A stretch of DNA of 64,000 nt from a virus (taxonomy: Duplodnaviria > Caudoviricetes), in IMG/VR virus record IMGVR_UViG_3300047160_018490, positions 13,903-77,902 of that record; one strand, 5' to 3'. A program made the position numbers and the translations under genes. This document shows positions 1 to 50,994 of this stretch, one piece after another (within the stretch, counting starts at the first letter, position 1; each line of letters opens with the position of its first letter). The notes below the pieces were generated by a model. The model made no database searches. It worked only from the letters and a program-made list of their open reading frames with translations, and was not told the origin of the DNA.

Positions 1-1075
1 CCTGACCCACGGGGTTGGCGGCTACCCTTCTTACCGCATCACTGAAGCGAGCCAGGGTAAGGGGGTCTCCAGGGTCACCTGGGATGATCCAGCCATGCTT
101 CACGTTGTCTGCAAGGGCCCAGACGGGAGAGCAGATGGGCATGCACCCACACGCCTGGGCCTCCATGCACTGGATGCAGGAGGTCTCAGTGAAGCCAGTA
201 CAGTAGACCCACATTCCCGCGGAGAGCATCTCCCTCCAGAGGTCCGGTTGCCCGAGGCGCCCCCTCCAGGTGATCCCAGGCTGCTCCAGGAGGGGGATGG
301 CCCTTCTCTTGAAGTCTGCCCAGGAGGACTTCGGGTGGTCGCGGACGATCTTGTCGATGTTGTCCCAGCCGTAGCAGACGGAGAGCTTCAGAGAAGGTTC
401 ATACTCCCTGGCCCTCTTGAAGATGTTCAGGAGTGGTAGTAGTCCTCTATCTGGAGAGGAAGCATAGACGATCTTCTTTGGATCACGCTCCAGCCTGCCG
501 CATGGGTCTTTCGTGTTCCCAGGGCAATTGCAGGACGGCCAATTGCAACCAGGAGTCATTGCCCGTGCCAGGTTCTCCACAGCTTCGATCCCGTCCGTGC
601 AGATGCCGTTGCTGGAGACGCACACCTTCTCCGCCACGTCCGGGTAGCGGTAACGCAGGTGGCCGGCGTGCGTCTGGCACAGGGCGATGATACGGTCGAG
701 CTTCTTTCGTCTCGCCTCATTCAGCCCGGCTAGTGGCCCGCTGTCGGGATAGTCTACGTCCTGGCAGATTAACCACAATTGCTGTCCTGGATGTTCCTCA
801 GGGAAGTGATCCAGAGCATCCGGGCAGCGATAGAGAAGCCATACACCTGGCCTGGTGAAGGTGACATCATGGCGGTGCAGCCAGTCTACACCACCAGGAC
901 CTGGAGAAAGGCAATCCTCGGGGATGGGGGCATAGGAGAGTACGTCATGACCGCGATCAGCCAGGCGGCGAGAAAGCTCTACATGGGAGGTTTCACTTCC
1001 CCCAATACCATTCAGAGTGGGGTTTCTCCAATCCCAGTCCTCGAAAGATACTGGACTATAAAGGGTGAACCTCAT
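1..1075 (-). CDS. GT4-family (GT-B fold) glycosyltransferase, C-terminally truncated by the window edge
   Basis: Absent from the ORF track because it has no stop in the window. Manual translation from ATG 1075 (ATGA overlap with the upstream stop) is open to position 1: MRFTLYSPVSFEDWDW...GIGGSETSHVELSRRLA...VSSNGI...IVYASSPDRGLLPLL...FTETSCIQCMEAQACG (E-x7-E motif of GT4). Confidence 0.85.
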   Translation of the reverse strand, partial: MRFTLYSPVSFEDWDWRNPTLNGIGGSETSHVELSRRLADRGHDVLSYAPIPEDCLSPGPGGVDWLHRHDVTFTRPGVWLLYRCPDALDHFPEEHPGQQLWLICQDVDYPDSGPLAGLNEARRKKLDRIIALCQTHAGHLRYRYPDVAEKVCVSSNGICTDGIEAVENLARAMTPGCNWPSCNCPGNTKDPCGRLERDPKKIVYASSPDRGLLPLLNIFKRAREYEPSLKLSVCYGWDNIDKIVRDHPKSSWADFKRRAIPLLEQPGITWRGRLGQPDLWREMLSAGMWVYCTGFTETSCIQCMEAQACGCMPICSPVWALADNVKHGWIIPGDPGDPLTLARFSDAVRRVAANPVGQ

Positions 1076-1632
1076 GGCTCCTCCCCCCGGGAGAGGATGG
1101 TAAGCCCACAGCAGTTCCGGTAGTGCCTCATCACTTTCCACTCGGGATGTGTCTGCAGGAACCTTCCCAGGGCCAGCAAGAGGCCCTCCCTCTTGTCCTC
1201 GCCAATTACCCCCCACTCCTGAGTGTCATGCAGCAAGATCCACTTACTTACCTTCTCGGCATGCAGCTCCAACTCCCTGTGCAGAATGGTTCCTGCATGG
1301 AAGGTGTCGATGAGGAGGAGATCCGTTGGCTCGATCTCTACCTCCCTGGTGTCCCCCTGGATAAAGAGCCAGCAATCCCATGCCAGAGGTCCCAGGGCGG
1401 CCACCGTCTGCGTGCAAGGGTCGCGGTCATAGGAGATGAGGCGCCCGTGTCCCTCCTTGCAGCCCATCAGCAGCGCCACCGTGGAAACCCCATGACGGAC
1501 GCCGAATTCCGTGACGTGGGTACAGCGGGAGGCCAGCTTGCGCAGGAGAGGGCAGTGATCCCGCATGTCCGAAGATGCGACGCACACCTCGGCATAGGCC
1601 GCCTCAAGGTTTGGAGAGGTCAGGTGTGTCAT
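1072..1632 (-). CDS. class I SAM-dependent methyltransferase (Methyltransf_24-like)
   Basis: Motifs VTEFGVRHGVST, LISYDRD, DLLLIDTFH and WILLHDT. Confidence 0.8.
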   Translation of the reverse strand: MTHLTSPNLEAAYAEVCVASSDMRDHCPLLRKLASRCTHVTEFGVRHGVSTVALLMGCKEGHGRLISYDRDPCTQTVAALGPLAWDCWLFIQGDTREVEIEPTDLLLIDTFHAGTILHRELELHAEKVSKWILLHDTQEWGVIGEDKREGLLLALGRFLQTHPEWKVMRHYRNCCGLTILSRGEEP

Positions 1633-4869: not shown

Positions 4870-5037
4870 GATCTTCTATCTCCTGCGCCTGCGGAGGCGT
4901 CTTCGATACCTGCAAGGGAGGATGACTCGCCTCCGGATGATCTGAAGGCGAGGAGGACGGGGGTACTTGTGATGCACCTCATTCGAGGGATCTTTGTACC
5001 CCCCATTTCTACTGCGAGAACCCAAGCGAGAGGGGTC

Positions 5038-5544
5038 TTACCCTTCCTGATTGTCCCACTCGGCCTCGAAGTTCAGGGAGGCAGTGGGGGAAGCGCTGAA
5101 CAGGTCCATGCTCTTGTTGGCATTGCCATCCAGGAGTGGCACGTCATCGGGGTTGATTGCCACCCAGCCGCCAGGACCGCTCGCACCCATGCTGCCCAGA
5201 CCAACGACGACGGGACCACCCGTACCACTCGTGACCACGGCTGTACCACCACCCGAACCCATCCCTGCGGTGGCCACGCAGGCAGGGGCCAGGTTGTTCT
5301 TCGGCTGAGGCGTCGTTGCCTGTCCTCCTGAGGAGGTGCCAGATGTCCACTGCTTCAGACGGATGACGATACCCGAGAGTGCCGTCAAGCCGCCACCTTT
5401 ACCCTGGACGCGCAGGGCGATCACCGTGGCTGGCCGGGACGCACCTGGCTTGAGGAAGGCGAAGTCAAGCTCCGTATTGGCGCTGCCCGAGGTGGTGTAG
5501 TTCTCGAACACCTGCTTCGTGGCATTTGCGTAGATGAAAGGCAT
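5038..5544 (-). CDS. putative virion structural protein (beta-sandwich-like)
   Basis: Gly/Ser/Thr-rich 168 aa ORF with AGGAG 6 nt upstream; tail-region context. Confidence 0.5.
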   Translation of the reverse strand: MPFIYANATKQVFENYTTSGSANTELDFAFLKPGASRPATVIALRVQGKGGGLTALSGIVIRLKQWTSGTSSGGQATTPQPKNNLAPACVATAGMGSGGGTAVVTSGTGGPVVVGLGSMGASGPGGWVAINPDDVPLLDGNANKSMDLFSASPTASLNFEAEWDNQEG

Positions 5545-5642
5545 GGATTATCTCCTGTTGCCTGGACACTGCTTCTGCTTGGGTTCCGGCCTCCTGCCAA
5601 GTCCTACCATCCTAACGCATCACTCTTTCCCCTGGGAAGGGT

Positions 5643-6146
5643 CTAGGAGGGGACGGGGAAGGGGCTCTCTTTCTCCAGAAGCTCCAGGGCCTTCCCAAGT
5701 TTACCACACTCCTGAAGGGCGAGGAGTTCCTCCCCTGTGAGGTCCCGCCCGAACTTCTTCCTCATCTCCTCCTGCACACTCTTACAGAACTCATCATCCG
5801 GCTGGGCATAGGTGCCTGCAATGGCTCCGTGGGTCTCGAAGCACTTCGCACAGAGCCAGAAAGCGAAGGAGGTGTTGTCCTTGGGGACGTAGCCGAACTC
5901 CTTGCCGCAATTCGCACAGTAGACCATCACACATTCACACCTCACCGTGGTGCCGTCGGGCATGGGCCAGTCCACCATCTGACTCCCGAAGGTGGGGTGA
6001 TGCGTGAGGCGCGAGTCAGGGAGGATGTGGGCATTTCCTGGGTTCATGAGTGCCCCTCGAACGAGGTTACTGTCACGTCTGGGGGAGAATAGTCCGGGCA
6101 GGTCTGGCAGCAGTAAACCCCCTCCAGGGCCCTCTGTGGGGTGCAT
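5643..6146 (-). CDS. hypothetical protein with CxxC pairs
   Basis: VYCANCGKEFG and WLCAKCFE motifs; start position uncertain. Confidence 0.5.
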   Translation of the reverse strand: MHPTEGPGGGLLLPDLPGLFSPRRDSNLVRGALMNPGNAHILPDSRLTHHPTFGSQMVDWPMPDGTTVRCECVMVYCANCGKEFGYVPKDNTSFAFWLCAKCFETHGAIAGTYAQPDDEFCKSVQEEMRKKFGRDLTGEELLALQECGKLGKALELLEKESPFPVPS

Positions 6147-6451
6147 TTCTCATGGAGGGCACAGGCGAAGAGCTTCAGGAGTACCTTCCCTTCGCATGAT
6201 GGGCACTCCTGTACTTCTCCAGTGGCGTCCCCCAGATGCCTGCAATATCTTCCCCGGGGGAAAGGAGGAGAAGGGAGAGGAGGAGTGGAAGAAGGCATCT
6301 TGCTCTCCAAGGGGAGGAGAGGCCCTACCTCGTCCGGCCAGTTCATGAGCTTCCGCCAACATAGCAGACACTGATCGTAGGTGTAGAAGCCCCTTCTGGC
6401 CTCTCTGCCTGGGTGCTTACCGTCACAGATATTGTGGAGGTTATAGCTCAT
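6044..6451 (-). CDS. Cys-rich hypothetical protein
   Basis: Likely start ATG 6451 (TAAGATG coupling to the upstream stop). C-terminal CRHLG...CPSC..K.FACALHEKCT...CCQTCPDY. Confidence 0.55.
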   Translation of the reverse strand: MSYNLHNICDGKHPGREARRGFYTYDQCLLCWRKLMNWPDEVGPLLPLESKMPSSTPPLPSPPFPRGRYCRHLGDATGEVQECPSCEGKVLLKLFACALHEKCTPQRALEGVYCCQTCPDYSPPDVTVTSFEGHS

Positions 6452-6452
6452 C

Positions 6453-7481
6453 TTATAGGGTGATAGTGACCGTGAATGGACTAGGGGGGCAGCCTCCATG
6501 AGGGCAGCAGGTTATCGGGTCCGTACAGGGAATAGTAGCTCCTGAGCATCCTGCGGAAACTCCACTGGGTCCATTGAAGACTCCTGTGAACTGGAGGAAG
6601 GGTGGGTAACAGGTTCCCGTTACGCTGGTGGTAAAGAGCAGGGTAAAGGATGGCACAGTAGGGTAAGGAGGGATAGAAATCGCCTGAAACTGGAAGAAGT
6701 TAGGGAATCCCTCTACGTGTAAGCACTGGAGGAGGAAGGTAGTTGGGTATCCTGTGCAAGGGTCTCTGGTTCCAGGAGGAGAGGCCCAGGAGAATGAACT
6801 CATGTTCAAGAGCAAGGGAACCGTGAAGCCGTTCCAGCAGCCGCAAGGAGAGGTTGTGACAGTAAAGGTAGCATGGAGGATGGTGGGAAGCCCAATCAAT
6901 CCCCCAGCGGCGTCTCCAATAGCTGCACAGGCTCCCTGAATGCAGGAGTTCGTAAATGGGGGAGAGGGGCAGCACCCGGTGGGGTTATTAACACACACTG
7001 GAGAGGCAAAGGTAGGTGGTGCCTCCAGGCCCACGACTGCTGTAATGTATTCGGCACTGATGCCAGTCACCACCTGGATGGTGTGACCTGCGAGATCAGA
7101 TAGTGCTACTCCGAAGGTTGGGCAAACGTTGTCCAGGTACTTCAGGGTCGCATAGAAAGGGGTGTCAGGAGTGGTGGGTGCTGAGAGATCCACCAGGTAG
7201 GTCCAATCCACCACGGGATCGAAGTAAGCTCTGGTGGCTCGGTGGACGCTGTTGATGGTAATGGTCTGACTATTAGCCTCATAGATAGGGTTGTTCCCTA
7301 CACTCCCGAACCTGCCTCCTGGGCGATCCCGGAAGGAAGCTGGCCCCACAGGGTCTTGCTCGCGCCAGGAGTAGAACTTTCCACTCTGGGAGAGGATCTT
7401 GGCCCAGAAGGGCTTGTTGAGTTGCGCCCAACTCTTCTCCTCCCCCACGAAGGTTCCGCCATGTACTTCCTGCTCGTACAT
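6453..7481 (-). CDS. Cys/Pro/Thr-rich minor tail protein
   Basis: Second gene after the tape measure; many Cys pairs (GCCPSP, PCGCW, ITCCPHGGC). Confidence 0.55.
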   Translation of the reverse strand: MYEQEVHGGTFVGEEKSWAQLNKPFWAKILSQSGKFYSWREQDPVGPASFRDRPGGRFGSVGNNPIYEANSQTITINSVHRATRAYFDPVVDWTYLVDLSAPTTPDTPFYATLKYLDNVCPTFGVALSDLAGHTIQVVTGISAEYITAVVGLEAPPTFASPVCVNNPTGCCPSPPFTNSCIQGACAAIGDAAGGLIGLPTILHATFTVTTSPCGCWNGFTVPLLLNMSSFSWASPPGTRDPCTGYPTTFLLQCLHVEGFPNFFQFQAISIPPYPTVPSFTLLFTTSVTGTCYPPFLQFTGVFNGPSGVSAGCSGATIPCTDPITCCPHGGCPPSPFTVTITL

Positions 7482-15419: not shown

Positions 15420-16367
15420 CTACCAGCTCGGCTCCCTGTAGCGGGCCAAGATTCTACAGATGCTTCCTATCTCCGGGATGGCCTCTCCTTGCCCAAGGAC
15501 GCTGTAGGAGTACCCTCCCAGGCTCTCAGAGGCCAGAGGGGCTCCCGCGGGGTTGTTGCGAGCCATCCAGGCCACCAGTTGCTTGCAGGCGTTCTGGAGG
15601 GGCAGGGGGATCTTCCCCAGTTGATGCCCAGCGGAATAGAGAACTTTGAGGTTGCCATCCCCTCTAGGCCACATGGGAAGCCTGTAGGCACCCAGCTTCC
15701 CACTGTAGAAGTTTTCAGGATAGAAACCGACGAAGCCGGCTCCGCTCCCTCCAATGCGCCTCAGGAGTCCCCTTTCAGAGATTTTCCCTTGCGAGTCATC
15801 GGTGTCTACTACCACCTGCACTCCCAGTACCAGGAGGGTTCCCGGAGCGAAGGCAGAGGGCGCCTGTCCCCAGTAGCCGCCTGGGTCGAAGAACACACAC
15901 GGAGAGAAGCAGTTATTCAGCCCTGTGGCACTGCTCAGGGTGCCTGTGCCTCCAGAGCAGCCAGTAAAAGAGGTAGCGGTAGTGCCCGTGTAGGTGATGA
16001 CCGAGTAGGTGCTCACCCCTGTCTGGAGGGCCACCGAGGGCAATGCCTGAGAGGGATCACTCCCAGTGCCCTGGTGGAAGCCGGAGGTGCTTACCACGTT
16101 CACCGTGGCTTGGGGAAGCACAGCTCCATTGCTTCCTGCGGCTACCTGAGTATTCCCCACCAGGCAAGGCCACTGGCGGAGGATAATATCCCGGGTCTGA
16201 TCCCCTGAGTGAAACTCCGTGTAGGCGGAAAGCTCCAGGGCGCGTTTGCACCATAGCTTGATGCCTGCGTCTGCCTCGCCAAGGAGGTCATTCAACCAGG
16301 CAAGGGGAATGGCAGCCTGGTTCTGGAGACCAGGCATGTTCAGGACTTGCTCGATGGTGCAGAGCAC
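15420..16367 (-). CDS. head-tail adaptor (HK97 gp6/SPP1 gp15-like) with an inserted beta domain
   Basis: N-terminal LCTIEQV...WCKRAL and C-terminal IPLPLQNACKQLVAW...SESLGGYSYS...ILARYR, flanking a Thr/Gly-rich insert. Confidence 0.75.
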   Translation of the reverse strand: MLCTIEQVLNMPGLQNQAAIPLAWLNDLLGEADAGIKLWCKRALELSAYTEFHSGDQTRDIILRQWPCLVGNTQVAAGSNGAVLPQATVNVVSTSGFHQGTGSDPSQALPSVALQTGVSTYSVITYTGTTATSFTGCSGGTGTLSSATGLNNCFSPCVFFDPGGYWGQAPSAFAPGTLLVLGVQVVVDTDDSQGKISERGLLRRIGGSGAGFVGFYPENFYSGKLGAYRLPMWPRGDGNLKVLYSAGHQLGKIPLPLQNACKQLVAWMARNNPAGAPLASESLGGYSYSVLGQGEAIPEIGSICRILARYREPSW

Positions 16368-17071: not shown

Positions 17072-18733
17072 TTACACGCTTCCGGCCGCGAGAACACGGT
17101 CATAGCGCCCGTTCTCCTCTACAGAATACCCGATAGCAGCGAGGGTGCCCACCTGCCTGAGGAGGCGGAAACCACCCTTATCAAGGAACTCCCCCACTGC
17201 CTCGGTGACGCCCCTGTTTTCCTGAGAGGTGGAGAGGTAGTCATGCACCACGATGATGCCTCCTGCACCCAGCCGGCGGGCGCTCTGCTCCAGGTCATGC
17301 ATGACATCTGCTCTCTCATGGGAGCCATCAATGAAGATGACATCGAACTCATCACCGAGGTTTTCCTCCTCCATCTCCCTGAAGAAGTCCTGGGAGGTGC
17401 CCCGGTAGATCCTCACTTTCACCTCGTGGCGGTTGAGATTGCTGCAAAACTCCTCGAAGGTATCTCGGGGGGAAGAAGTACCCCTACCATCAAAGGGGTC
17501 CACGCAAGTGACCCTCTTCGCCACTCGCCCTATCCACACAGTGGAGAGGCCCAGGTAGGAGCCGATCTCCAATACCTCCTTTCCCTCCGCAAGGGTGGTG
17601 AGGAAGCGTCCCTCGGTGTCTGTAAGCCACCCGAAGACGTTGTCTGGGGGCGTGTAGGAGTCCCTCCTCAGGGGGCGCTGTACGGTGCCACCAAAGCGTG
17701 GGCCATCCGCACTCCCGATGGGATGAGGCTGCGTGGGGATGGGGCTTTGAGAGGGTGGAGGCGGGAGGACGACACTGCGGGCGAGGAGAGCACTCTGGGG
17801 TTCAGGAGTCGTTACACTCCTCTGGCCTTCAGGAGTCACCACAGTTTCCTTCTTCACCTCTCCAGGGATGATGGGCTCGTCCGGAGGAGGTGCAGCAGAG
17901 AGGATGTTCTTCCCCTTGTGCTTCACTACCAGGTTGCCATCCTGCTTCATGTCCCCCCAGGGGTGGTTGTTGGGATAGGGGAGAATACCCACATGAGAGA
18001 CCACTACTCTCCTGGAAGCGGCCACCACAGCCCCAGCCCTCTGGATCTGCCTGGAGAAGTTCCAGTCCTCGGGGTCTACCTCCGAGGACCACTCCCCAGG
18101 AGGGAGAAGGTCTCTCTCAGCCAGCCTGGCAGCCTCTTCCTGGAGGAGCCTTCTCCCATCAGGGAGGCGGTAAACGATCCTGTCGTTGATCTCGAAGTGC
18201 CCTCTGAAACGCCAGGGGCGAGTGAAGTGGCATACCCAGCAGCCTGTGTTCACTAGCAGCATCCTGTCCGGATAGGAAGTATCCTTGGCCATGAAGACAG
18301 AAGGAAGATAGAAAACCTCCTCCATTGTGAGCCTTCTCTCCACGCAGAAGGGGTCGCTGGGGTCGTCAATGGCGGTACTTACCAGACCTCTCTGGTCCTT
18401 GATGGGGATGCAGGCACTCACGAGATCTGCTCCGGAATCTCTCAGGTCTTCCAGGAGGGTAGCCAGCCACCCATCGAGAGGCACCACGTCATCATGCAAC
18501 ATCGCAAAGTGAGTGATGTCCCTCCCGTGCTTCTGGTAGTTGAGGGCACCGCACCACGCCTGGTTGAAGGTGTTGGCAAGGAGGCTCCCACCAAAGGAGG
18601 ACATATCCAGTCTTCCCGAGATGGCATGACCAGGAGGGAGAGGGGAATAGAGGAACGCTCTGTGGCTCTCCGGGCGCCCATTCCCGTAAGTGGGCTGGAA
18701 GCAGAAGACCCTTCCTACCTGCATCGTTGCCAT
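17072..18733 (-). CDS. GT-A-like glycosyltransferase domain fused to a class I SAM methyltransferase
   Basis: N-terminal THFAMLHDDVVP and EDWNFSRQI..VSHVG. Pro-rich linker. C-terminal VLEIGSYLGLST, CVDPF, FDVIFIDGSH and IIVVHDY. Confidence 0.8.
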   Translation of the reverse strand: MATMQVGRVFCFQPTYGNGRPESHRAFLYSPLPPGHAISGRLDMSSFGGSLLANTFNQAWCGALNYQKHGRDITHFAMLHDDVVPLDGWLATLLEDLRDSGADLVSACIPIKDQRGLVSTAIDDPSDPFCVERRLTMEEVFYLPSVFMAKDTSYPDRMLLVNTGCWVCHFTRPWRFRGHFEINDRIVYRLPDGRRLLQEEAARLAERDLLPPGEWSSEVDPEDWNFSRQIQRAGAVVAASRRVVVSHVGILPYPNNHPWGDMKQDGNLVVKHKGKNILSAAPPPDEPIIPGEVKKETVVTPEGQRSVTTPEPQSALLARSVVLPPPPSQSPIPTQPHPIGSADGPRFGGTVQRPLRRDSYTPPDNVFGWLTDTEGRFLTTLAEGKEVLEIGSYLGLSTVWIGRVAKRVTCVDPFDGRGTSSPRDTFEEFCSNLNRHEVKVRIYRGTSQDFFREMEEENLGDEFDVIFIDGSHERADVMHDLEQSARRLGAGGIIVVHDYLSTSQENRGVTEAVGEFLDKGGFRLLRQVGTLAAIGYSVEENGRYDRVLAAGSV

Positions 18734-19434
18734 TAGACTCCTACCCTTTCAGCGTGGGGCGCCTCATTGGCATGGTAGAGGACGCAGTGCTCACCCATGA
18801 GAGGAGACCATGCTCTCTCACAGTAGTGCGCTTCCTCAGGATGAGGGTGGTCCGCGAGGTCCTCCAGCAGCCCTTCATAGAGGGAGCGGGGGCGCCTCTT
18901 AATCATCTCTCTGGAGGCAGCGAAGCAGGCGCCTGGGGCGTAGCGGATCTCCCAGGCGTCTCTCAGCTCAATGCCCAACTTCTCCCGGAACCATGCCAGG
19001 AAGGACAGCCCTGCCGGCCGCATGTCCTTGGGATAGCTATAGACTCTATTGATGTTGGGCCAATTAAGATACCCAGAGGGGAGCCACTCTCTGCAATGCG
19101 TGAACCCAGGAAAGAAGGGGATGCAGGAGGGCTGGAGGAGTCCCTTCACGATGGAGAGGCCGAGCATGTGCGGGAAGGGGTCACCCTGCAAGAAACCAGT
19201 CCAGTCTGCGAGGGTGTCCCACCTGGAGAGGAGGTGGATGAGATAGGTGTGAGCTTCTCTACCCACGTTAGGGAGGGTGATGACCCGTGCGCGAGTGTCC
19301 ACAGCGAGAGGAGAGGGCCCCTTGTTGTAGACTGTGACCTCAAACATCCTTCCGAAGCGGATGCTATCTTCGTAGACATCCGTAACCCACGAGAGGTCCT
19401 CTTCATACCTGGCCACTACCAGCTCGATGCTCAC
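18733..19434 (-). CDS. DUF3431-like protein
   Basis: ELVVARYEEDLSWV...YNKG...LPNVGREAHTYLIHL...FLQGDPFPH. Probable GTG start at 19434 (GTGA overlap with the upstream stop). Confidence 0.8.
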   Translation of the reverse strand: MSIELVVARYEEDLSWVTDVYEDSIRFGRMFEVTVYNKGPSPLAVDTRARVITLPNVGREAHTYLIHLLSRWDTLADWTGFLQGDPFPHMLGLSIVKGLLQPSCIPFFPGFTHCREWLPSGYLNWPNINRVYSYPKDMRPAGLSFLAWFREKLGIELRDAWEIRYAPGACFAASREMIKRRPRSLYEGLLEDLADHPHPEEAHYCERAWSPLMGEHCVLYHANEAPHAERVGV

Positions 19435-20432
19435 TTTCCCACTCCTCTGAAAAGGGCGCTCCAGGCACGCAGGCACTCGCCGTAGTGCTTCAAGTAAGGG
19501 TCCTGGGTCCAATGGAGCTTCGTGCCGATCTCGAACAACATCCCCTGTGCCGTATCGCAGAAGAGGTTGATACCGTCTACCTTCTCCCAGAAGGTCTCGT
19601 TGAATTTCATTCCTGGAGCTTCCAGGGCCAGGTTCTTCCTGGCATCAGAAGCCCTATCATGCCGAATGAAGGGCTCGCCAATGGAGATTTGCCACCCTAG
19701 CCTGTCACAGATTTTTTTGGCTATAATGCCCATCCAGATATCATCGAAGCGGTGGTAGGGCACCCCGTCCCCTGAGGGGGCGAAGTACAGGAGTGGGATA
19801 GCTTCCCTCTTCACACAGAGGTTCATCCCGCAGATGGGGGCATACTCTCCCCTGGCGAGGAGTCTCCCCCCGGGGGGAGGTATATAGGGGCAGCTTTTGC
19901 CCTCTGTTTCTTCATCCCTTTCTAGCTCCGTGCGGGCATCGAAGTCGGGGTTCTTGCTCCACAGGCCCATCGACATCATGACATCTTCTCTCACCCCAAT
20001 GCTCTCGTAGGGGAGGCCCCTCACCCGCATGCCAGGCCAGGTGGTGTTCCACTTCGGGGTGCGAGCGAGGACCTCATGGTGCCTCTGCATGAGGGTGCTC
20101 TGGTCGTGAGGGTAGTGAGGGTAGCAGTCATCGTCCAGGGTGAGGACGAAGTCATACCCCTCCTTCCACGCGATGTAGAGCCCGAAGGAGCGGCATGCAC
20201 TGCTCCCCTTGGAGATGGTGAAGGCACTCTCCCCGAGAATGCGGCGGTAGTCTGCCTGGGAGAAGTGGAGGAGGCGCTTCCCGAGAGTAATAGAGCAAGG
20301 GGTGAAAGTAGGCTGTGGACTGTCCTCAACGAGGATGATAGTGTCCCAACCTCCTTTCCCCTCCCACTCCTGAAGGAAGCGGAGGAAGGAGTCTGGGCGG
20401 TTAGATGGGACTACCAGGGCGGCAGAGGCCAC
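19431..20432 (-). CDS. RGP / UDP-arabinopyranose mutase (GT75)-like protein
   Basis: SACRSFG..., LTLDDDCYP, RGLPY, SMGLWSKNPDFDA, PICGMNL, RFDDIWMG..AKKICDRLG and HDRAS..KNL are colinear with motifs of plant RGP/UAM as I recall them. Confidence 0.8.
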   Translation of the reverse strand: MASAALVVPSNRPDSFLRFLQEWEGKGGWDTIILVEDSPQPTFTPCSITLGKRLLHFSQADYRRILGESAFTISKGSSACRSFGLYIAWKEGYDFVLTLDDDCYPHYPHDQSTLMQRHHEVLARTPKWNTTWPGMRVRGLPYESIGVREDVMMSMGLWSKNPDFDARTELERDEETEGKSCPYIPPPGGRLLARGEYAPICGMNLCVKREAIPLLYFAPSGDGVPYHRFDDIWMGIIAKKICDRLGWQISIGEPFIRHDRASDARKNLALEAPGMKFNETFWEKVDGINLFCDTAQGMLFEIGTKLHWTQDPYLKHYGECLRAWSALFRGVGK

Positions 20433-20460
20433 GATTCTGCCCTCCAGGTGAAGGAAGTGT

Positions 20461-20493
20461 TGGGGGAGTACCTCGCGGCAGAGGACTCCCCCA
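20461..20493 (-). terminator. GC-rich hairpin just after the decoration gene
   Basis: TGGGGGAGT(a)CCTC-gcggca-GAGG-ACTCCCCCA forms a 13 bp stem with one bulge; the U-tract is weak. Confidence 0.45.
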
Positions 20494-20499
20494 GTTATG

Positions 20500-20976
20500 C
20501 TACATCACCTGCCGGTTGAGCAGCGAGGTGTTGGTGCTGAAGTCGAACTGGTTGCAGGGCTCGTAGCTTCCATGACCACCAAACAGGCTGCCGGCGATGT
20601 TGACGTTGTTGCCGGCGTTGGTGTTGGTGGTGGTCTGAATGAGCATCTGCACCCAGGTGTTGTTCGCCGGGATCTGGTCCGCCCGCATTTCGATGGTGCC
20701 CTCGGAGTTGCTCGTGTTGAGGGTCACCGTAGCCCCTGAAGGCACATTCGAGAAGGTGCCGTTGTTGGCGTTCGAGGACTGAAACTGGGCTGTGATGTTG
20801 GTCACGTTCGCGCCAATCGTCTGGGCCATGACGTGGCCCATGATGCGGCGGAACTTGGCCATGCTCACCGGCCCCACCAGCGTGTTGACCGTGTTGTTGT
20901 TGCTGTTGGGCGCCGCAGGGTAGCTGGACGCAGCCGGAATGGTGATCGCCTGCGTCATCTGCTCGACAAACTTCAT
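20500..20976 (-). CDS. putative capsid decoration/cement protein
   Basis: 158 aa Asn/Thr-rich beta protein immediately after the capsid genes; AGGAG upstream. Confidence 0.55.
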   Translation of the reverse strand: MKFVEQMTQAITIPAASSYPAAPNSNNNTVNTLVGPVSMAKFRRIMGHVMAQTIGANVTNITAQFQSSNANNGTFSNVPSGATVTLNTSNSEGTIEMRADQIPANNTWVQMLIQTTTNTNAGNNVNIAGSLFGGHGSYEPCNQFDFSTNTSLLNRQVM

Positions 20977-20998: not shown

Positions 20999-21017
20999 AA
21001 AAGGGAGCAATCTCCCT
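20999..21017 (-). terminator. short intrinsic terminator after the second capsid gene
   Basis: Minus strand AGGGAG-ATTG-CTCCCT followed by TTT; overlaps the stop codon. Confidence 0.45.
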
Positions 21018-22170
21018 ACTTGAGGATGATGTAGGGACTCACCATAGTGGTTCCATCCTGTAAGGTTATGGCAGATTGAACCTGGGGCTTGCCATCTGCC
21101 CGCAACCAGACCCTGAAGTCGGTCTGGTTTGTCTTGAAGGCTGGTCCCAGAGTGTCTGCATCAATGAGGACTTCCTGCCTCATACCGACTACGTAAAGCC
21201 AGGGATCGAAGAAGATCAGGTCACCAAGAGAGCCCAGGGTGGACAACTTCTCTGTGATGAAGACCGGCCTGGTGAGGAGGCTCCCCACCTGGCCGCCCTC
21301 ATCGTTGGCCTCCACGTTCAGGAAGAAGTTGGCCACCTGGATGAGCTGGGCAACACACGCAGGGGAAGAGGCCCAGATGGCGTTCTTCCAGGAGAAAGGC
21401 AACATCGCCGCTGCCATGTTGGCGATATCTACCTGGAGGATCTGGCTTGGTGTGTGCCTGGATACTGTCTTGGCTGCGGGGGCGTTGATGATCCCCAGAG
21501 GCATCTGGTTGGAGGTGCCTGTGCCCTGGAGGAAGGCATATTCCAGATACCACGCTGCCGCCATCCCGAAGAGCTTCAGGAGGTGATCCTCGCCCTCCGT
21601 GTTAGCGTCCTCCAACCAGTCATTAGAGACCGTGGCGTAGCCCAGAAGGTCCCACGCTGTGAGGGGGTCACTCCTGAACTTGGGCTCTGTTTCGGAGGGG
21701 GCTTGCGAGGTGCCCCACTTGAAGATGAGCCCACCGAAGAAGGGAGAGGTGGCTGCCGACTGGGCCGTCTCGGCATCCACCTTTGGACACTCAGTGGTGA
21801 GGGAGCGCATGGGGATCACATGCGCTCGCGGGTAAATGAAGCTGTTCTCGCTGATGGCCTGGAGGAGCTGGTTGGTAAAGTCCGTAGGCACCAGGTAGCC
21901 ACCAACGGCACCCGAGGTCTCTCCCATCGCCGCCTTCTGCACCTGGCCGGGAAGGACACGGAAGGGGCTCCGATAGTGCTTCTGGAGGATGTCTTCTCCA
22001 GCCATTCGGGTGGGTTCAGAGAAGGGGTCCCTGGCAGCCCTTACAGCCTTCAGGAAGCCTGTGAAGGACCTCCGGTGGGGAACCTCCAGAGGGGGAGCGC
22101 CAACCGGGCCACCCCCACGAACCAGGGGGGGACGCATGTTTGGCTTCATTGGCAGTGTCGATACGGCCAT
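21016..22170 (-). CDS. second HK97-fold major capsid paralogue
   Basis: KAAMGETSGAVGGYLVPTDF..., GTGTSNQMPLGIINAP, LLTRPVFITEKL..GDLIFFD...RADGKP; colinear with the 517 aa capsid protein. Confidence 0.9.
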   Translation of the reverse strand: MAVSTLPMKPNMRPPLVRGGGPVGAPPLEVPHRRSFTGFLKAVRAARDPFSEPTRMAGEDILQKHYRSPFRVLPGQVQKAAMGETSGAVGGYLVPTDFTNQLLQAISENSFIYPRAHVIPMRSLTTECPKVDAETAQSAATSPFFGGLIFKWGTSQAPSETEPKFRSDPLTAWDLLGYATVSNDWLEDANTEGEDHLLKLFGMAAAWYLEYAFLQGTGTSNQMPLGIINAPAAKTVSRHTPSQILQVDIANMAAAMLPFSWKNAIWASSPACVAQLIQVANFFLNVEANDEGGQVGSLLTRPVFITEKLSTLGSLGDLIFFDPWLYVVGMRQEVLIDADTLGPAFKTNQTDFRVWLRADGKPQVQSAITLQDGTTMVSPYIILK

Positions 22171-22352
22171 CAGTCCTTTTTCTTCTCCCTGCGAGCCTTC
22201 AGTTCCTCCTCTAACTCCTTTTCAGAGAGCTGGGAGAGGAGATGCTGTCTGAGATCGTGGGCCCTATCGAGGAACCTCCGTGCCTCCTCTTCAGAGGGGA
22301 GGGAGTCCTTCGGGGAGTTATCCCTGTCGATGCCAAACTTCGCGTGAGCCAA
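22170..22352 (-). CDS. small charged hypothetical protein
   Basis: 60 aa ORF whose stop abuts the capsid-2 start (TGATG). Confidence 0.45.
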   Translation of the reverse strand: MAHAKFGIDRDNSPKDSLPSEEEARRFLDRAHDLRQHLLSQLSEKELEEELKARREKKKD

Positions 22353-22375
22353 GGAAACCTCTATCAGAAAGGGAG

Positions 22376-22443
22376 GCTGCTGGGGGGCCTGACACCCACC
22401 CTCTCCGTGGGGAATGGCCGGACACCACTCTCCCCCCAGCAGC
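22376..22443 (-). terminator. 12 bp perfect inverted repeat downstream of the major capsid gene
   Basis: GCTGCTGGGGGG (22376-22387) and CCCCCCAGCAGC (22432-22443) with a 44 nt loop; CTCCCTTTCT follows on the minus strand. Confidence 0.45.
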
Positions 22444-22475
22444 GGAGTCCCTTGAATGTACCCCTTGAGAGGTTC

Positions 22476-24029
22476 TCAGTTTAGCACAACAAACGGCGAG
22501 ATCGTCCATCCCGCCTGGTCCGTGATGGCGTTGTTCAGCCAGGGCTTGCCATCGCACCGGGCGATGACCCGCCACGCCAACTGGTTGTTGCGGAAGAGGT
22601 AATGCGGGCTGACATCAATCTGCATGTCCAACCGCATGCCGATGACGTAGCGGCTCCAATCCACCAGCATCACGTCGCCCTTGGTTCCAAGCTGCGGCAG
22701 CTTCTCGGTGAAGAAGACTGGCAAGCCGTTCAAGAAGGCGTTGGGGAGCTTGGAGGCAGCGGGGCCCCTGTCCGTGGTCATCGTGGGATTGACCCACACG
22801 AGGCGGTTGCCGGCCGGGAAGGACGAGGATGGAGAGGCGGCGTTGCCCCAACCTCCATCGACCATCATCAGGAGCTGAGGCAGCACGCTCTGATGCATGA
22901 TCCAGGCGGCGTCATCCCAGGAGCGCACCTGGAGGTGGGCCAGCATGGTGGCCGCGTCCTGGTAGAGGAAGCGCGAGGACTGGAGGCGGCCCTGGGAGAT
23001 GGTGGCCGGGGCGTTGAGGATGCCCAGAGGCATCGAGGAGCCGGCTCCCTTCCCTTGCAGATAGGCAAACTCCTTGTACCAGGTAATCGCCTGGCCAAAC
23101 AACTGCGTCAAAAGGGCGTCCAGCCCGATGCCGTTGTCTGCCAGGAGCTGGTTGCTGGAGACGCTGTAGAGGACCAGGTCCCACGCGGTCCAGACACTCT
23201 GCTTGAAGGCTGGCTCCGTCTCGTTGATGGTGGCCGCTTCAGGCTGCCACTGGGCCAGGATGCCGCCGAAGTACGGAGAGGTGCCGCTGGCCTGGACAGT
23301 GGTGATGTCCAGCATCGGCCACTCAGCCGTGCGGGAATTCATTGGCACCACCTTGGCGCGGGGCTCGATGAAGCCATCCTCGGCCGCGATGGTAAGCAGC
23401 TCCTGCATGAACTGCGGGGGGATCAGGTATCCACCCGTCTGGCCGGAGCCTTCTGCGAGGGCTGTCTTGCGCCTCTCATTCAGGAGTACCTGCCCATTGC
23501 GATAGGTGGGCACCCCCACAGTGGCAGCCTTGGCAACGGTGACGAAGCCGTGCTGCCTCTCAAACTGCTCCATGCCGTAGTTTTCGCCAAACAGTCCCTG
23601 CGACTTGGCGATGGCCTGGGCATCCTTGTTGCCTGAGAGGGCTGCCATCGAGACCAGGGCCGGGCCGATGCCGGAGATGCGAGGTCTGCCACTCTTCCGC
23701 ATCCCGAACAGGTCCACTGCGGCAGGTGAGGTATAGGCCCCACCCAGGGCCTTCAACTGCTCCACCGGCCAATCGCGGTAGGAGGACTGCCGCCACCTCT
23801 CATAGGAGCGGTCGATGTCCCCGATGATGGCACCCGGAGATGGGCCAGCAGGGGTGCGAGCCATCTTCTCAACGGCTTTCTCGATCTGGTCGAGCCGCTG
23901 GAGGGCGAGAAGGTTGATGTCCGCAGGGGGACGAGGGGGCTGCTGGGGCTGGTAGCCAGGACCACCAGGAGGAGCGCCCGCAGGACGGCGCTGGGGCGGA
24001 GGAGGGGTACGAGTTGGGACGGTCGCCAT
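22476..24029 (-). CDS. HK97-family major capsid protein with an N-terminal delta/scaffold domain
   Basis: KTALAEGSGQTGGYLIPPQF, GKGAGSSMPLGILNAP, FLNGLPVFFTEKLP..GDVMLVDWSRY..RCDGKP; about 188 aa N-terminal extension. Confidence 0.92.
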   Translation of the reverse strand: MATVPTRTPPPPQRRPAGAPPGGPGYQPQQPPRPPADINLLALQRLDQIEKAVEKMARTPAGPSPGAIIGDIDRSYERWRQSSYRDWPVEQLKALGGAYTSPAAVDLFGMRKSGRPRISGIGPALVSMAALSGNKDAQAIAKSQGLFGENYGMEQFERQHGFVTVAKAATVGVPTYRNGQVLLNERRKTALAEGSGQTGGYLIPPQFMQELLTIAAEDGFIEPRAKVVPMNSRTAEWPMLDITTVQASGTSPYFGGILAQWQPEAATINETEPAFKQSVWTAWDLVLYSVSSNQLLADNGIGLDALLTQLFGQAITWYKEFAYLQGKGAGSSMPLGILNAPATISQGRLQSSRFLYQDAATMLAHLQVRSWDDAAWIMHQSVLPQLLMMVDGGWGNAASPSSSFPAGNRLVWVNPTMTTDRGPAASKLPNAFLNGLPVFFTEKLPQLGTKGDVMLVDWSRYVIGMRLDMQIDVSPHYLFRNNQLAWRVIARCDGKPWLNNAITDQAGWTISPFVVLN

Positions 24030-24446: not shown

Positions 24447-24893
24447 CTAGACCTCCGAGGGAATGCCAGGACCATCTCCTGAGTGAGCGTCCTCCCGAAG
24501 AGGAGGCTTCTTCACTGCGGCCTTCTCCAGATTGTGAGGATGCCTGGGGTGATCCAGGAAGCGGTTACTGGCGAAGGTGCCTTTCACCAGGTCCTCGATG
24601 CCCTGGGCGCTCATCTCTCCTTCCCTCCTGGCCACCGGCCTGCCATCAACGAAGACCATGATGGTGGGAAGGGCGTGGACGTTGTACTGCGAGGCCACGC
24701 TCTCCTGCGCGTCGGTATCCAGCCTGGCAAAGTGCGCCCTCTCCTTCATGGACTCGGCCGCCTCCTTGAAGGCAGGCTCCAGGTTCTTGCAATGAGGACA
24801 CCATTCCGCGAAAAAGTCCACCACGCAGCAGGGGGGCTCCTTGACTGCTTGCTGGAAGCTGGCGGAGTCCAGTTCTTTGACCAGGTCACTCAT
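24447..24893 (-). CDS. thioredoxin-fold protein with a WCPHC active site
   Basis: VVDFFAEWCPHCKNLEP...FARLDTD...YNVHALPTIMVFVDG. Thioredoxin fold, but the active-site dipeptide is not the canonical GP, so no symbol is given. Confidence 0.92.
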   Translation of the reverse strand: MSDLVKELDSASFQQAVKEPPCCVVDFFAEWCPHCKNLEPAFKEAAESMKERAHFARLDTDAQESVASQYNVHALPTIMVFVDGRPVARREGEMSAQGIEDLVKGTFASNRFLDHPRHPHNLEKAAVKKPPLREDAHSGDGPGIPSEV

Positions 24894-48820: not shown

Positions 48821-49083
48821 GGGTCTGCGAGAGGGTATGCCTTCAGGAAGCGTAGGGCGTCATTCACACTCTCGAAGTATCGCAGCTTGGGACCATCGAA
48901 TACCAGCCCATTCTCCATGCCCAGGGAGACGAACCAGCGGGGCTTCTCACCTTCTTCCATCTTCTTCTTCCTGCGGCCTACCTTGCTCTGGAAGATAACC
49001 GGACCCTGGAGCCTGTAGGGCCCAGGACAGAGCCAGTAGGTGCCATAGGCGTCTGGTTCAGGAGTGGCGTTAGGTAGAAGCAC
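48802..49083 (-). CDS. hypothetical protein
   Basis: Co-directional 93 aa ORF overlapping its neighbours. Confidence 0.4.
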   Translation of the reverse strand: MLLPNATPEPDAYGTYWLCPGPYRLQGPVIFQSKVGRRKKKMEEGEKPRWFVSLGMENGLVFDGPKLRYFESVNDALRFLKAYPLADPCGEAL

Positions 49084-49720
49084 TGGTGCCCCCTGACAGC
49101 GTCTTGAACTGGATGGCGATGTGAGCCCACTTGCTCATAGTGGCCTTTGCTGGGGTGAAGAGGTAGCGGCAATCCTTCAGGAAGGCGAGGGCCTTCAGAC
49201 AAATCTCCTCCTTCTTCTTGCAATCCTCCAGGATGGCCTCGCTCTCTCTTTTCCCCTGGGCCAGCATATCCTCCAGCACGTTCTGTGCCTCGCCCTTCAC
49301 CAGGAAGCGGTTCTGGGCTCTCATGATGGCGTCGATGGAAGCCTTGCAGGAGCCTTTATTTTCCCTGATGGCATCGAGGGAGGCTTGTACTTTCCTCCTC
49401 ATCCAGTCTACGAGGTCAATCTCCTCCGGCTTGCCATATCCCTTGGCACACTCCTGAATGCACGCCCCCAAGGTGTTGTTCAGGATGACCACCACCTGTA
49501 AGAAGGAGTTGTCAGCCTGGGCGCCGAGGTCCCCTGTGCGGTCATAGTTCGCCCTTCTCTCCTCATCTGAAAGGACATCGTAGGCGAGCTGCACCTCCTG
49601 GAAGACCTTCACATCCCCTCCCCTATCGGGATGGGACTTCATGGCCTTCTTGCGATAGGCTTTCTTCACCTGCTCAGGGGTAGCCTCTTTGGGGATACCC
49701 AGTACCACATACGGGTTCAC
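49070..49720 (-). CDS. J-domain (Hsp40 class C-like) protein
   Basis: MNPYVVLGIPKEAT.EQVKKAYRKKAMKSHPDRGG...FQEVQLAYDVLSDEERRANYD with an intact HPD; helical C-terminal domain. Confidence 0.92.
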   Translation of the reverse strand: MNPYVVLGIPKEATPEQVKKAYRKKAMKSHPDRGGDVKVFQEVQLAYDVLSDEERRANYDRTGDLGAQADNSFLQVVVILNNTLGACIQECAKGYGKPEEIDLVDWMRRKVQASLDAIRENKGSCKASIDAIMRAQNRFLVKGEAQNVLEDMLAQGKRESEAILEDCKKKEEICLKALAFLKDCRYLFTPAKATMSKWAHIAIQFKTLSGGTSAST

Positions 49721-49722
49721 GG

Positions 49723-50994
49723 TTACCGCTTTCTGTAAAGGGGAGACTTACGGAGGATGCTCTTGCTTTCCTCAGGAGGGGGAGGAAAAGCGGGCTCTTC
49801 CTTCCCGGGACGCAGCCTAATGCGAGACATACCCGCCGCTGTCCTTCCCTGGTCAGAGTCCGGGTTGTTTGACCCTCTGGACCCTTCTGTACCTGCTGGA
49901 GACCGAGCCCTTTCACCTTCCAGGAGCATGTCCTCTTCGATCTGGGTAAGCGGGTCAGGAGTATGCTCTGGTTGCTTCTCCACTTCTTCCTCTGGAGGGG
50001 CTTCCTCTTCCAGATCCCTTTGCATACGCTGACCCTCTGGGGAATTCCAGAACCGTAACCTCTCCTGCTCTATACTCCCCTCCGAGCGTCCCGCTGAGGA
50101 GGCCGGGTTGTTGGTCCCACGGGCACCTCTTGTACCAGCACGGGACGGTCTCTGCTCGTGCTCTCGCTGAGAACCAGGCACCAGAGGAGGCTGCTTCTCC
50201 ACTTCACCTCCCATCAGCTTCCTTACAGTGGCAAGGGGTATGCCCTTTCTCACAGCCTGACGCATGAGGTTACTGAGCTGCTTCTTCAGCTCCTTCACGG
50301 CATCGGTATCTGTTACCACTTTCCCCTCCCCATTACCAGCAGCAGTACCCTCTTTCCTCATCATGAACTCGATGCGTGAAGCCTTCTTGTGGGCCTCATC
50401 ATAGCCCATCCCTCCCTGCATGAGCTTCCTCTCCGCTGTCTCGTGCATGAGGGTATACTCCTTCTCGTTCTCCGAGAGGGTGTCCTCCAGCCAAATCTCA
50501 TCGCGGGGAACCCAGGGGTAAACTTCCCCATTGCCGCCCTCCACAAAATCAGTCTTGTAGAGGTCCCTCACCTTGTGGCCGTCCACCAGGTAAACCTTCA
50601 GCCCCTCCTCGGGAAGCTCCTTCCAAAGGGATGTCCTCACGTCACTCAGAGCAGGGCCGCCTTCCTCGCCCTCGCCTGGTTGCCGGCCGCCAGAAGATAG
50701 GCCCTCTTTCTCTCTCTCAGCCCGTTCTACACTCTGGCCTCTCTCATAGGCGTCATCCTCTGAGAGACCACCCTTCTGTGCCCTCTCCACAGCCAGGGCG
50801 CCATCTACCAGGATGCGCCTCTCCTCTGGCTCTACATTCTCGTCTAACCACACCTCTCCGGGGGGAATAAGGGAGGGAAAGTCAGAATGCAGCCCCACCA
50901 CGCCGAACTCCTGGTTGGTAAGGCCAGAGGAGCGTATCTTCTCCGCGTTTACCAGGTGGACGCGGGTGCTCTTTCTGTACTCAGGAATGGGCAT
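49723..50994 (-). CDS. head-associated protein with a duplicated domain (one HExxE...H copy) and C-terminal VEKQP repeats
   Basis: IPPGEVWLDENV / VPRDEIWLEDTL duplication, LMHETAERKLM...YDEAH motif, and two VEKQP...RG.NNP.S..GR units; directly after the portal gene. Confidence 0.7.
   Translation of the reverse strand: MPIPEYRKSTRVHLVNAEKIRSSGLTNQEFGVVGLHSDFPSLIPPGEVWLDENVEPEERRILVDGALAVERAQKGGLSEDDAYERGQSVERAEREKEGLSSGGRQPGEGEEGGPALSDVRTSLWKELPEEGLKVYLVDGHKVRDLYKTDFVEGGNGEVYPWVPRDEIWLEDTLSENEKEYTLMHETAERKLMQGGMGYDEAHKKASRIEFMMRKEGTAAGNGEGKVVTDTDAVKELKKQLSNLMRQAVRKGIPLATVRKLMGGEVEKQPPLVPGSQREHEQRPSRAGTRGARGTNNPASSAGRSEGSIEQERLRFWNSPEGQRMQRDLEEEAPPEEEVEKQPEHTPDPLTQIEEDMLLEGERARSPAGTEGSRGSNNPDSDQGRTAAGMSRIRLRPGKEEPAFPPPPEESKSILRKSPLYRKR

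Follow-up and report, generated by a model that had tools for sequence, protein, structure and literature searches.

Gene organisation of the locus

We analysed a 64,000-nucleotide window, i.e. bases 13903-77902 of a linear 77.9-kb virus record of IMG/VR (IMGVR_UViG_3300047160_018490; Duplodnaviria, Caudoviricetes), a record estimated to be ~77% complete. Its minus strand carries a gene of the RGP/GT75 family, to which the uridine diphosphate (UDP)-arabinopyranose mutases of plants belong, followed by a gene for a DUF3431 protein and by a gene of 553 amino acids (aa). What we consider most worth following at this locus is the presence of such a cassette in a capsid operon and, above all, a recurrent link between DUF3431 and sugar mutases. 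Gene order on the minus strand is terminase, portal, two giant open reading frames (ORFs), two HK97-type capsid genes, a 158-aa gene, the RGP gene, the DUF3431 gene, the 553-aa gene, a 227-aa gene and the head-tail adaptor. This succession of capsid, terminase and portal genes indicates that the record is a phage, and that the mutase gene lies within its head module. The main features are listed below, with their window coordinates. L002 designates a second, syntenic phage (IMGVR_UViG_3300039002_000011), GT-A a glycosyltransferase fold, NDP a nucleoside diphosphate and MFE the minimum free energy.

57178-58578, minus strand: terminase
50981-53317, minus strand: portal
22476..24029, minus strand: HK97-type capsid protein, 517 aa (PF05065, E 1.2e-31; phrog_10)
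21016..22170, minus strand: HK97-type capsid protein, 384 aa (PF05065, E 8.4e-27; phrog_10, major head protein)
20500..20976, minus strand: Asn/Thr-rich small head-module protein, 158 aa (same place in L002)
20461..20493, minus strand: RNA hairpin of 13 bp without U tract (81-nt stretch, MFE -32.8 kcal/mol, z -2.2)
20441..20445, minus strand: Shine-Dalgarno-like GGAGG, 8 nt before the mutase GTG (read from the sequence)
19431..20432, minus strand: predicted NDP-sugar pyranose-furanose mutase of the GT75/RGP family, 333 aa (PF03214, E 1.4e-31)
18733..19434, minus strand: DUF3431 protein, candidate furanosyl-transferase, 233 aa (PF11913, E 5e-10)
17072..18733, minus strand: GT-A/methyltransferase fusion, 553 aa (Methyltransf_24, PF13578, E 9.8e-20, C-terminal)
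15420..16367, minus strand: head-tail adaptor, downstream edge of the head module (phrog_442, E 1.6e-9)

The cassette is thus flanked by the capsid genes on one side and by the head-tail adaptor on the other, the whole on the minus strand, and its starts are coupled. The mutase stop overlaps the GTG start of the DUF3431 gene (aaGTGAgc), for which the source makes the same 233-aa call with the same start (P0121), and the ATG of the 553-aa gene in turn shares bases with the stop of the DUF3431 gene (TAATG). Given these GTGA and TAATG overlaps, we consider the three genes to be translationally coupled.

A full-length GT75 gene with an intact active site

The mutase ORF is open over 333 aa from its GTG start, with GGAGG 8 nt upstream and no internal stop. 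The initial annotation had assigned it to the plant RGPs on the basis of seven colinear motifs, and all of them were indeed present, in order: SACRSFG (residues 78-84), TLDDDC (98-103), RGLPY (138-142), GLW..NPDFDA (156-166), PICGMNL (199-205), RFDDIWMG..AKKICDRLG (228-246) and HDRAS..KNL (258-268). A search with the Pfam hidden Markov model (HMM) PF03214 gave a full-length match (E 1.4e-31, 110.4 bits for a cut-off of 23.8, model positions 9-339 of 342), making the protein a GT75/RGP member in a phage. With the same model, a six-frame search of the whole record found one place only, the mutase ORF (109.5 bits). The gene call of the source (P0001) is 199 aa long and starts near Met135; the 134 N-terminal residues that it misses contain the nucleotide-binding half and the DDD motif. 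Since homologues align across 97-99% of the 333 aa, and since the Pfam match begins at residue 7, we take the 333-aa form to be the real gene. Among PDB structures, a single-sequence search retrieved MtdL (7yua/7xpr, E 2e-18) and the UDP-arabinopyranose mutase 8cid (E 4.2e-17); with a profile of 35 relatives, E values were 1.5e-36 for 8cid and 6e-34 for MtdL. PHROGs is without a family for RGP, as well as for DUF3431.

In MtdL, Mn2+ is bound by D111 and H287, the phosphates by R257, R289 and H292, and the ribose by R90; D87, D109, R159, D195, Q229 and D260 are essential (PMC9937993). The catalytic Arg (MtdL R159) is needed for mutase activity in the characterised GT75 enzymes, and its plant equivalent, R158, is autoglycosylated (PMC9937993). 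The phage protein has the same residues at the metal and phosphate ligands D111, H287, R257 and R289 (its D102, H258, R228 and R260, respectively), and further identities are found at R81 (R90), D100 (D109), R138 (R159), D163 (D195) and D231 (D260). The DDD motif D100-D102 aligns with MtdL D109-D111, and R138, in RGLPY, aligns with R159 in PRGFPF of MtdL and with VRGYPF of 8cid. Of the residues whose mutation abolishes the activity of MtdL, D109, R159, D195, R257 and D260 are kept. Only three of the ligand or essential positions defined in MtdL differ: S78 (D87), a Ser as in active plant RGPs; M203 (Q229), a Met shared with the plant chain 8cid and with 115 of the 133 aligned relatives; and S262 (H292), which presumably follows the plant-type pattern. 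Catalytic positions are conserved in 108-126 of the same 133 relatives (108-124 for the DDD motif, 116 for the His). Intact in the phage and conserved among relatives, these positions indicate that the protein should be active, and its sequence makes it very probably a functional NDP-pyranose/furanose mutase.

We then considered the sugar donor. Between MtdL and the enzymes acting on UDP-sugars, specificity positions change from T13 to P, S86 to D, D87 to S and Q229 to M (PMC9937993). Three of these four mapped positions are plant-like in the phage protein, namely P9 (T13), S78 (D87) and M203 (Q229). The fourth, S77 (S86), is a Ser as in MtdL; the five closest members of the clade have Asp there. 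Of the set that goes with GDP-L-Gal and GDP-L-Fuc (guanosine diphosphate sugars) in MtdL and Hyg20 (T13, N42, S86, D87, Q229), only S86 is shared, as S77, N42 having no confidently aligned counterpart in the phage protein. On this residue pattern, a UDP-sugar is a likelier donor than a GDP-sugar. UDP-arabinose is not callable as the substrate from these positions, one being MtdL-like and the rest plant-like.

The two coupled partners have predicted GT-A folds

None of the three proteins, mutase, DUF3431 or 553-aa protein, has a transmembrane segment (maximum Kyte-Doolittle 19-mer, 1.37). The AlphaFold2 (AF2) model of the DUF3431 protein (pLDDT 85.9) was compared to known structures with Foldseek, which returned GpgS, ArnC, chondroitin synthase, GT6 and GlfT2 (E ~1e-4, probability ~1), and with the all-against-all aligner VIA, which returned GtrB (Z 9.8), ArnC (9.7) and DPMS (9.6), with Z 9.8-9.0 over residues 1-218. 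Judging from this model, DUF3431 is a divergent protein of the GT-A (nucleotide-diphospho-sugar transferase) fold. An alignment of 39 members contained no invariant DxD metal motif; invariant residues were V6, A8, Y10, Y36, K38, N56, G58, R59, E60, F81, E206 and W209. Metal-independent GT-A families exist, so that a missing DxD does not exclude transferase activity. The domain occurs in phages, giant viruses, bacteria, algae and filamentous fungi. Literature on it concerns Aspergillus only, where it is predicted to be a single-pass membrane protein of Golgi type (PMC5519750).

The 553-aa protein comprises an N-terminal domain (~1-275), a Pro-rich linker and a Methyltransf_24 S-adenosylmethionine (SAM) methyltransferase domain (388-499). 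Neither Pfam nor sequence and profile searches of PDB gave a significant match for the N-terminal domain. Its AF2 model (pLDDT 93.6) is structurally close to LH3 (Z 16.8), STIV A197 (Z 16.7, root-mean-square deviation 2.8 over 173 residues), COLGALT1 (Z 15.2) and mimivirus R699 (Z 14.5). By this structural comparison it is a GT-A domain, whose closest structures are protein-glycosylating or viral enzymes. Members of its family occur alone or fused to Methyltransf_24.

DUF3431 is recurrently linked to furanose-making mutases

We examined whether the association of the three genes is found elsewhere. In L002, the order is capsid, capsid, small protein, RGP, DUF3431, glycosyltransferase-methyltransferase, the 227-aa protein and adaptor, i.e. 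the same as in the window, with 29-65% identity between corresponding proteins and 45-47% for the RGP itself. In a collection of 79 viral RGP loci, DUF3431 was found at most three genes away from RGP in 11 (by HMM) to 13 (by tblastn), compared to 0 of 80 bacterial loci. The two genes were on the same strand in 10 of the 11 linked loci, and overlapped by 4 nt in L002 and in a further locus, L075. Linked loci are scattered over the RGP tree, where they force at least 9 changes.

The reverse search started from DUF3431, with a viral sample of 80 loci collected from 145 matches in all, giant-virus bins included. For 40 dereplicated viral loci, Pfam families were tallied over two genes on each side. 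The top neighbour family, with 15 of 142, was Glf, the UDP-galactopyranose mutase (GLF, PF03275). By BLAST and HMM searches together, Glf lay within three genes of DUF3431 in 33 of the 80 viral loci, and it was usually adjacent, on the same strand, with a 4-11-nt overlap. Six Glf genes adjoining DUF3431 were verified as GLF (E 1e-47 to 1e-75). Moreover, in one record (IMGVR_UViG_3300035670_009930, our locus L223, positions 4977-6860), a single ORF of 627 aa unites DUF3431 (residues 9-89), an FAD/NAD-binding domain (217-285) and a UDP-galactopyranose mutase domain (361-563). This fusion is a Rosetta-stone link from DUF3431 to the supply of furanoses. As a control, Glf was searched for in the RGP loci, and none was found in the 79 viral and 80 bacterial ones (159 loci, 2.1 Mb). 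Glf and GT75 are therefore two unrelated enzymes that have the same GT-A-fold neighbour, and are mutually exclusive in the loci examined.

The most economical interpretation of two unrelated furanose-making mutases sharing this neighbour is that DUF3431 uses up the furanose donor. We consider it probable that this protein uses the mutase product, as a furanosyl-transferase. Extending this to a new family of furanosyl-transferases, fed by an adjacent Glf or GT75, and in the present phage to a capsid coated with a methylated, furanose-containing glycan, is a tentative proposal, and rather doubtful in its full form. The GT75 gene itself belongs to a known family, and the link between DUF3431 and mutases is the new lead. 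Through this link, a widespread domain, which two unrelated mutases adjoin and to which one of them is fused, acquires a function that can be tested. It also bears on the DUF3431 protein of Aspergillus, a genus where galactofuranose biosynthesis is of medical interest.

Distribution and phylogeny of GT75

A collection of 5.8 billion proteins contained at least 262 relatives of the phage mutase at E <= 0.001, the best 120 having 36-50% identity; many of these 120 were named RGP or UDP-arabinopyranose mutase by the Joint Genome Institute (JGI). When genome contigs were scanned with the mutase alone as query no match was obtained, and it was an alignment query that found the loci: 79 viral loci in IMG/VR, and 90 loci, of which 80 were kept, in species-representative bacterial genomes. 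The bacteria belong to Solirubrobacterales, Planctomycetota, Acidobacteriota, Patescibacteria, Chloroflexota and Proteobacteria. Among deposited phage genomes, one uncultured phage of 595 kb has a homologue with 40.6% identity. The cultured Synechococcus phages S-T4, Sf-CH5 and Sf-CH8 have a distant GT75-like ORF (NC_048049.1 77092-77733; PV340852.1; PV340853.1), which is ~25% identical to the mutase across residues 68-279 (E 2e-5) and carries the annotation hypothetical or "putative membrane protein". In soil viromes, automated annotation of carbohydrate-active enzymes has already named GT75 as a viral auxiliary gene (PMC11032446, PMC12016548). GT75 is thus widespread among uncultured phages and bacteria, rather than unique to this phage, and for this reason finding a homologue of plant RGPs in a phage is less surprising than the initial annotation had supposed. 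Its assignment to the plant RGP/UDP-arabinopyranose mutases holds for the family and the catalytic residues; the nearest relatives, with 37-51% identity, are bacterial and viral, not plant.

A FastTree phylogeny of 134 viral and bacterial sequences showed viral and bacterial rows interleaved, the viral label having to change at least 10 times on supported branches. The window mutase falls in a group supported at 96%, together with sequences of four viral loci (L002, L003, L004 and L006) and of two metagenome-assembled genomes (MAGs) of Pirellulales. With 79 viral and 80 bacterial loci at hand, the phage copy says little on the origin of the family, for which it had been thought informative.

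Neighbours were tallied by Pfam family. In bacteria (n=112), they included short-chain dehydrogenase/reductase (SDR) epimerases/dehydratases (12) and GT2 (12), as well as methyltransferases and Wzy_C; in viruses (n=134), GT2 (12), epimerases (6), Methyltransf_24 (6) and DUF3431 (3). Such neighbourhoods fit a mutase supplying donors to glycan pathways. In a Pirellulales contig (DASSFG010000318.1, our locus L093, 3899-7059), the gene of the bacterial homologue nearest to the phage clade begins within the end of a 698-aa PMT_2 gene, with an overlap at the stop codon of the latter; PMT_2 is a membrane glycosyltransferase of GT-C type, and its gene is itself preceded by a GT2 gene. This gene set suggests an envelope furanosylation pathway in planctomycetes. 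GT75 is patchy in that phylum (10 of 301 genomes). Homologues of the phage capsid proteins (~30% identity) were present in 31 of 401 genomes of Planctomycetota, the only phylum searched, and the host is possibly, but tentatively, a planctomycete, not an actinobacterium.

Proposed role of the cassette

We propose that the phage encodes a Mn-dependent NDP-pyranose/furanose mutase feeding a virion glycosylation cassette, a reading that we favour on balance as a whole. The GT75 mutase, soluble and Mn2+-dependent, would interconvert an NDP-pyranose of the host pool and the corresponding furanose, relying on the conserved Arg138 and on its DDD/His metal site, and would be translated together with two transferases. 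Of these, DUF3431 would most likely take the furanose donor, and the 553-aa GT-A/SAM methyltransferase would add a second sugar, methylate the glycan, or both. The most likely target would be a capsid protein or the 158-aa protein of the head module. No SDR epimerase or dehydratase was found on the 77.9-kb record, and in the absence of such a sugar-activation gene the pyranose substrate should come from the host, or from the part of the genome absent from the record. The initial annotation had proposed either a furanose donor or a primer for a virion glycan; the context favours the donor, and nothing in it points to a self-glycosylated primer.

Position of the cassette within the late head operon, from capsid to adaptor, designates a virion protein, capsid or 158-aa, as the likeliest acceptor. 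Further points in this direction are synteny with the capsid genes in L002, the solubility of the enzymes, the resemblance of the second glycosyltransferase to protein glycosyltransferases, and the presence, at the opposite end of the record, of GT4 and GT2 genes beside a fibre-like Laminin_G_3 gene. Glycosylation of mycobacteriophage virions, reportedly described by Freeman et al. in Cell Host Microbe in 2023 (a study cited in PMC11256854), would be a precedent. The acceptor is nevertheless the weakest step of the proposal, and for a virion protein the chances appear slightly short of even.

The 158-aa protein contains 14.6% Asn and 12% Thr, and is 29% identical to its L002 counterpart. Its viral family has 74 representatives of ~150 aa. 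It has no Pfam match, and the profile of the family found nothing significant in PDB. Its atlas look-alikes are viral, and a 12-16% share of them carry PF21190 (Bbp16), a lead only; Bbp16 serves as capsid cement in Bordetella phage BPP-1. The 158-aa protein is possibly, on this weak indication, a capsid cement or decoration protein, and a possible glycan acceptor.

Several observations weigh against our proposal. No acceptor tag, either a Ser/Thr tail or an excess of sequons, was found on the head proteins examined: the two capsid proteins end in ...YIILK and ...FVVLN, without Ser/Thr tags at their C-termini, and the 7 N-x-S/T sequons of the 158-aa protein do not exceed what its composition predicts (4.6 +/- 1.8; 302 of 2000 shuffles were as high), its L002 homologue having 1. 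The hairpin at 20461..20493, between the 158-aa and mutase genes, parts the last structural gene from those of the cassette, and might act in attenuation or in stabilising the RNA. The record is incomplete, so that genes for DNA modification or sugar activation could be in the absent part. Bacterial homologues of GT75 sit in envelope-glycan clusters. Sugar nucleotidyl-transferases share the superfold of DUF3431, with slightly lower Z (8-9), and on these structural grounds DUF3431 could act before the mutase, as a nucleotidyl-transferase; such an upstream role fits poorly with the luminal or extracellular topology predicted for the fungal DUF3431. Lastly, we know of no phage GT75 for which the chemistry has been established.

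Other explanations were weighed on the same data. The furanose donor might serve a modified base in phage DNA, as a protection against restriction, the position in the head operon being incidental. Phage DNA carrying arabinofuranose is established, with UDP-Araf made by another route (PMC13326640), and the missing part of the record leaves room for the genes concerned. On the 77.9-kb record, however, no thymidylate-synthase homologue (PF00303) was detected with controls that worked; T4-type glucosyltransferase (PF09198) and Tet/JBP (PF12851) gave no match either, in searches whose controls were silent too. Both partners have predicted GT-A folds, and the structures nearest to them are those of protein or glycan transferases, not of GT-B enzymes of the BGT type; L002, too, keeps the cassette in synteny with its capsid genes. 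These points make DNA glycosylation improbable. Remodelling of the host surface during infection or lysogeny, for instance to exclude superinfecting phages in the manner of phage genes that modify O-antigen, would fit the GT2, SDR epimerase/dehydratase, Wzy_C and PMT_2 neighbours of bacterial relatives in envelope-glycan clusters, the classification of viral GT75 as a cell-wall auxiliary gene in a virome study (PMC11032446), and the additional GT4 and GT2 genes near the fibre-like gene. However, all three proteins are soluble, without transmembrane segment, no flippase, polymerase or lipid-carrier transferase was found among the Pfam-searched ORFs, and the genes are translationally coupled within a late structural operon. 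DUF3431 is moreover rare in the likely host phylum, Planctomycetota (3 of 301 genomes). We hold this explanation to be unlikely.

It is much less probable still that the protein is mainly a self-glycosylating primer, which would prime or carry the glycan. The Arg autoglycosylated in plant RGPs is conserved, as R138; but the same Arg is required for mutase activity in the characterised enzymes (PMC9937993), none of the ligands of metal, phosphate and sugar on which turnover depends has been lost, and no GT75 is known to act as a primer. That the gene is an inactive or decaying passenger without role in the phage, as the 199-aa ORF of the source gene caller might suggest, is the least credible explanation, given an open 333-aa frame with a good Shine-Dalgarno sequence and all catalytic residues, and the 45-47% identity to a homologue having the same partners in the syntenic L002.

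We retain virion glycosylation as the preferred reading. To our knowledge, GT75 is the only metal-dependent route to NDP-furanoses, and the phage gene belongs to its large bacterial and viral branch. Furanose sugars are, as far as we know, absent from mammals and are strong antigens. If virions are decorated with furanoses, this would have consequences for how phage and host recognise each other and for how the immune system recognises phages.

Other features of the record

The tandem HK97-fold capsid genes (21016-24029, minus strand) are ~40% identical over their common part, and both are kept in L002. A terminator-like hairpin with a T run lies 3' of the 384-aa capsid gene (21002-21017), and a gene for a thioredoxin-like protein (24447-24893, minus strand, phrog_22) is found just upstream of the capsid genes. 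A DnaJ J-domain protein (49070-49720, minus strand, E 3e-20) adjoins the portal region. A second group of sugar genes is present at the tail-fibre end of the record (window 2-1216, minus strand; contig C1:9295-15118, our locus L161), where genes for GT4 (442 aa) and GT2 (244 aa) stand beside that of a 605-aa protein with two Laminin_G_3/concanavalin-like domains.

Comparison with known systems

The virion cassettes of mycobacteriophages Che8, Corndog and Myrna also have glycosyltransferases and methyltransferases among structural genes, with capsid or tail targets. They are not known to include a pyranose-furanose mutase or DUF3431, and their acceptors have C-terminal tags, not found here; their host is actinobacterial, whereas the present one is not, and is possibly a planctomycete.

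The class-1 RGPs/UDP-L-arabinopyranose mutases of plants (rice UAM1, AtRGP1-3; 8cid) share colinear motifs with the phage protein over its whole length. The Pfam model, built on plant sequences, matches it over positions 9-339 of 342, and three of the four specificity positions are plant-like. Plant enzymes are nevertheless distant (phmmer E 4.2e-17), prokaryotic and viral relatives being nearer (37-51% identity), and at the MtdL S86 position the phage has Ser where plants have Asp.

Apart from plant enzymes, the only characterised GT75 mutases that we know of are two bacterial ones, both from actinomycetes, MtdL and Hyg20. MtdL, from the A201A pathway of Marinactinospora thermotolerans, and Hyg20, from that of hygromycin A, belong to the same family as the phage protein (PMC9937993). 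The DDD/His Mn2+ site, the catalytic Arg (R159, R138 in the phage), D195, R257 and D260 are common to MtdL and the phage protein, and MtdL and Hyg20 are soluble enzymes supplying a furanose donor to a downstream transferase, a role that we predict for the phage mutase. MtdL differs in using GDP-L-Gal and GDP-L-Fuc, while the phage has Pro (T13), Ser (D87) and Met (Q229) like the plant UDP-sugar enzymes; phmmer aligns only phage residues 73-126 and 149-279 with it. MtdL and Hyg20 are encoded in antibiotic clusters, and the phage gene in a head operon.

Finally, the FAD-dependent Glf/UGM (UDP-galactopyranose mutase, PF03275) is unrelated to GT75 in fold and cofactor, and not one of the 159 RGP loci examined contains both. 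Both carry out the same net type of reaction, from NDP-pyranose to furanose, and both occupy the same place beside DUF3431.

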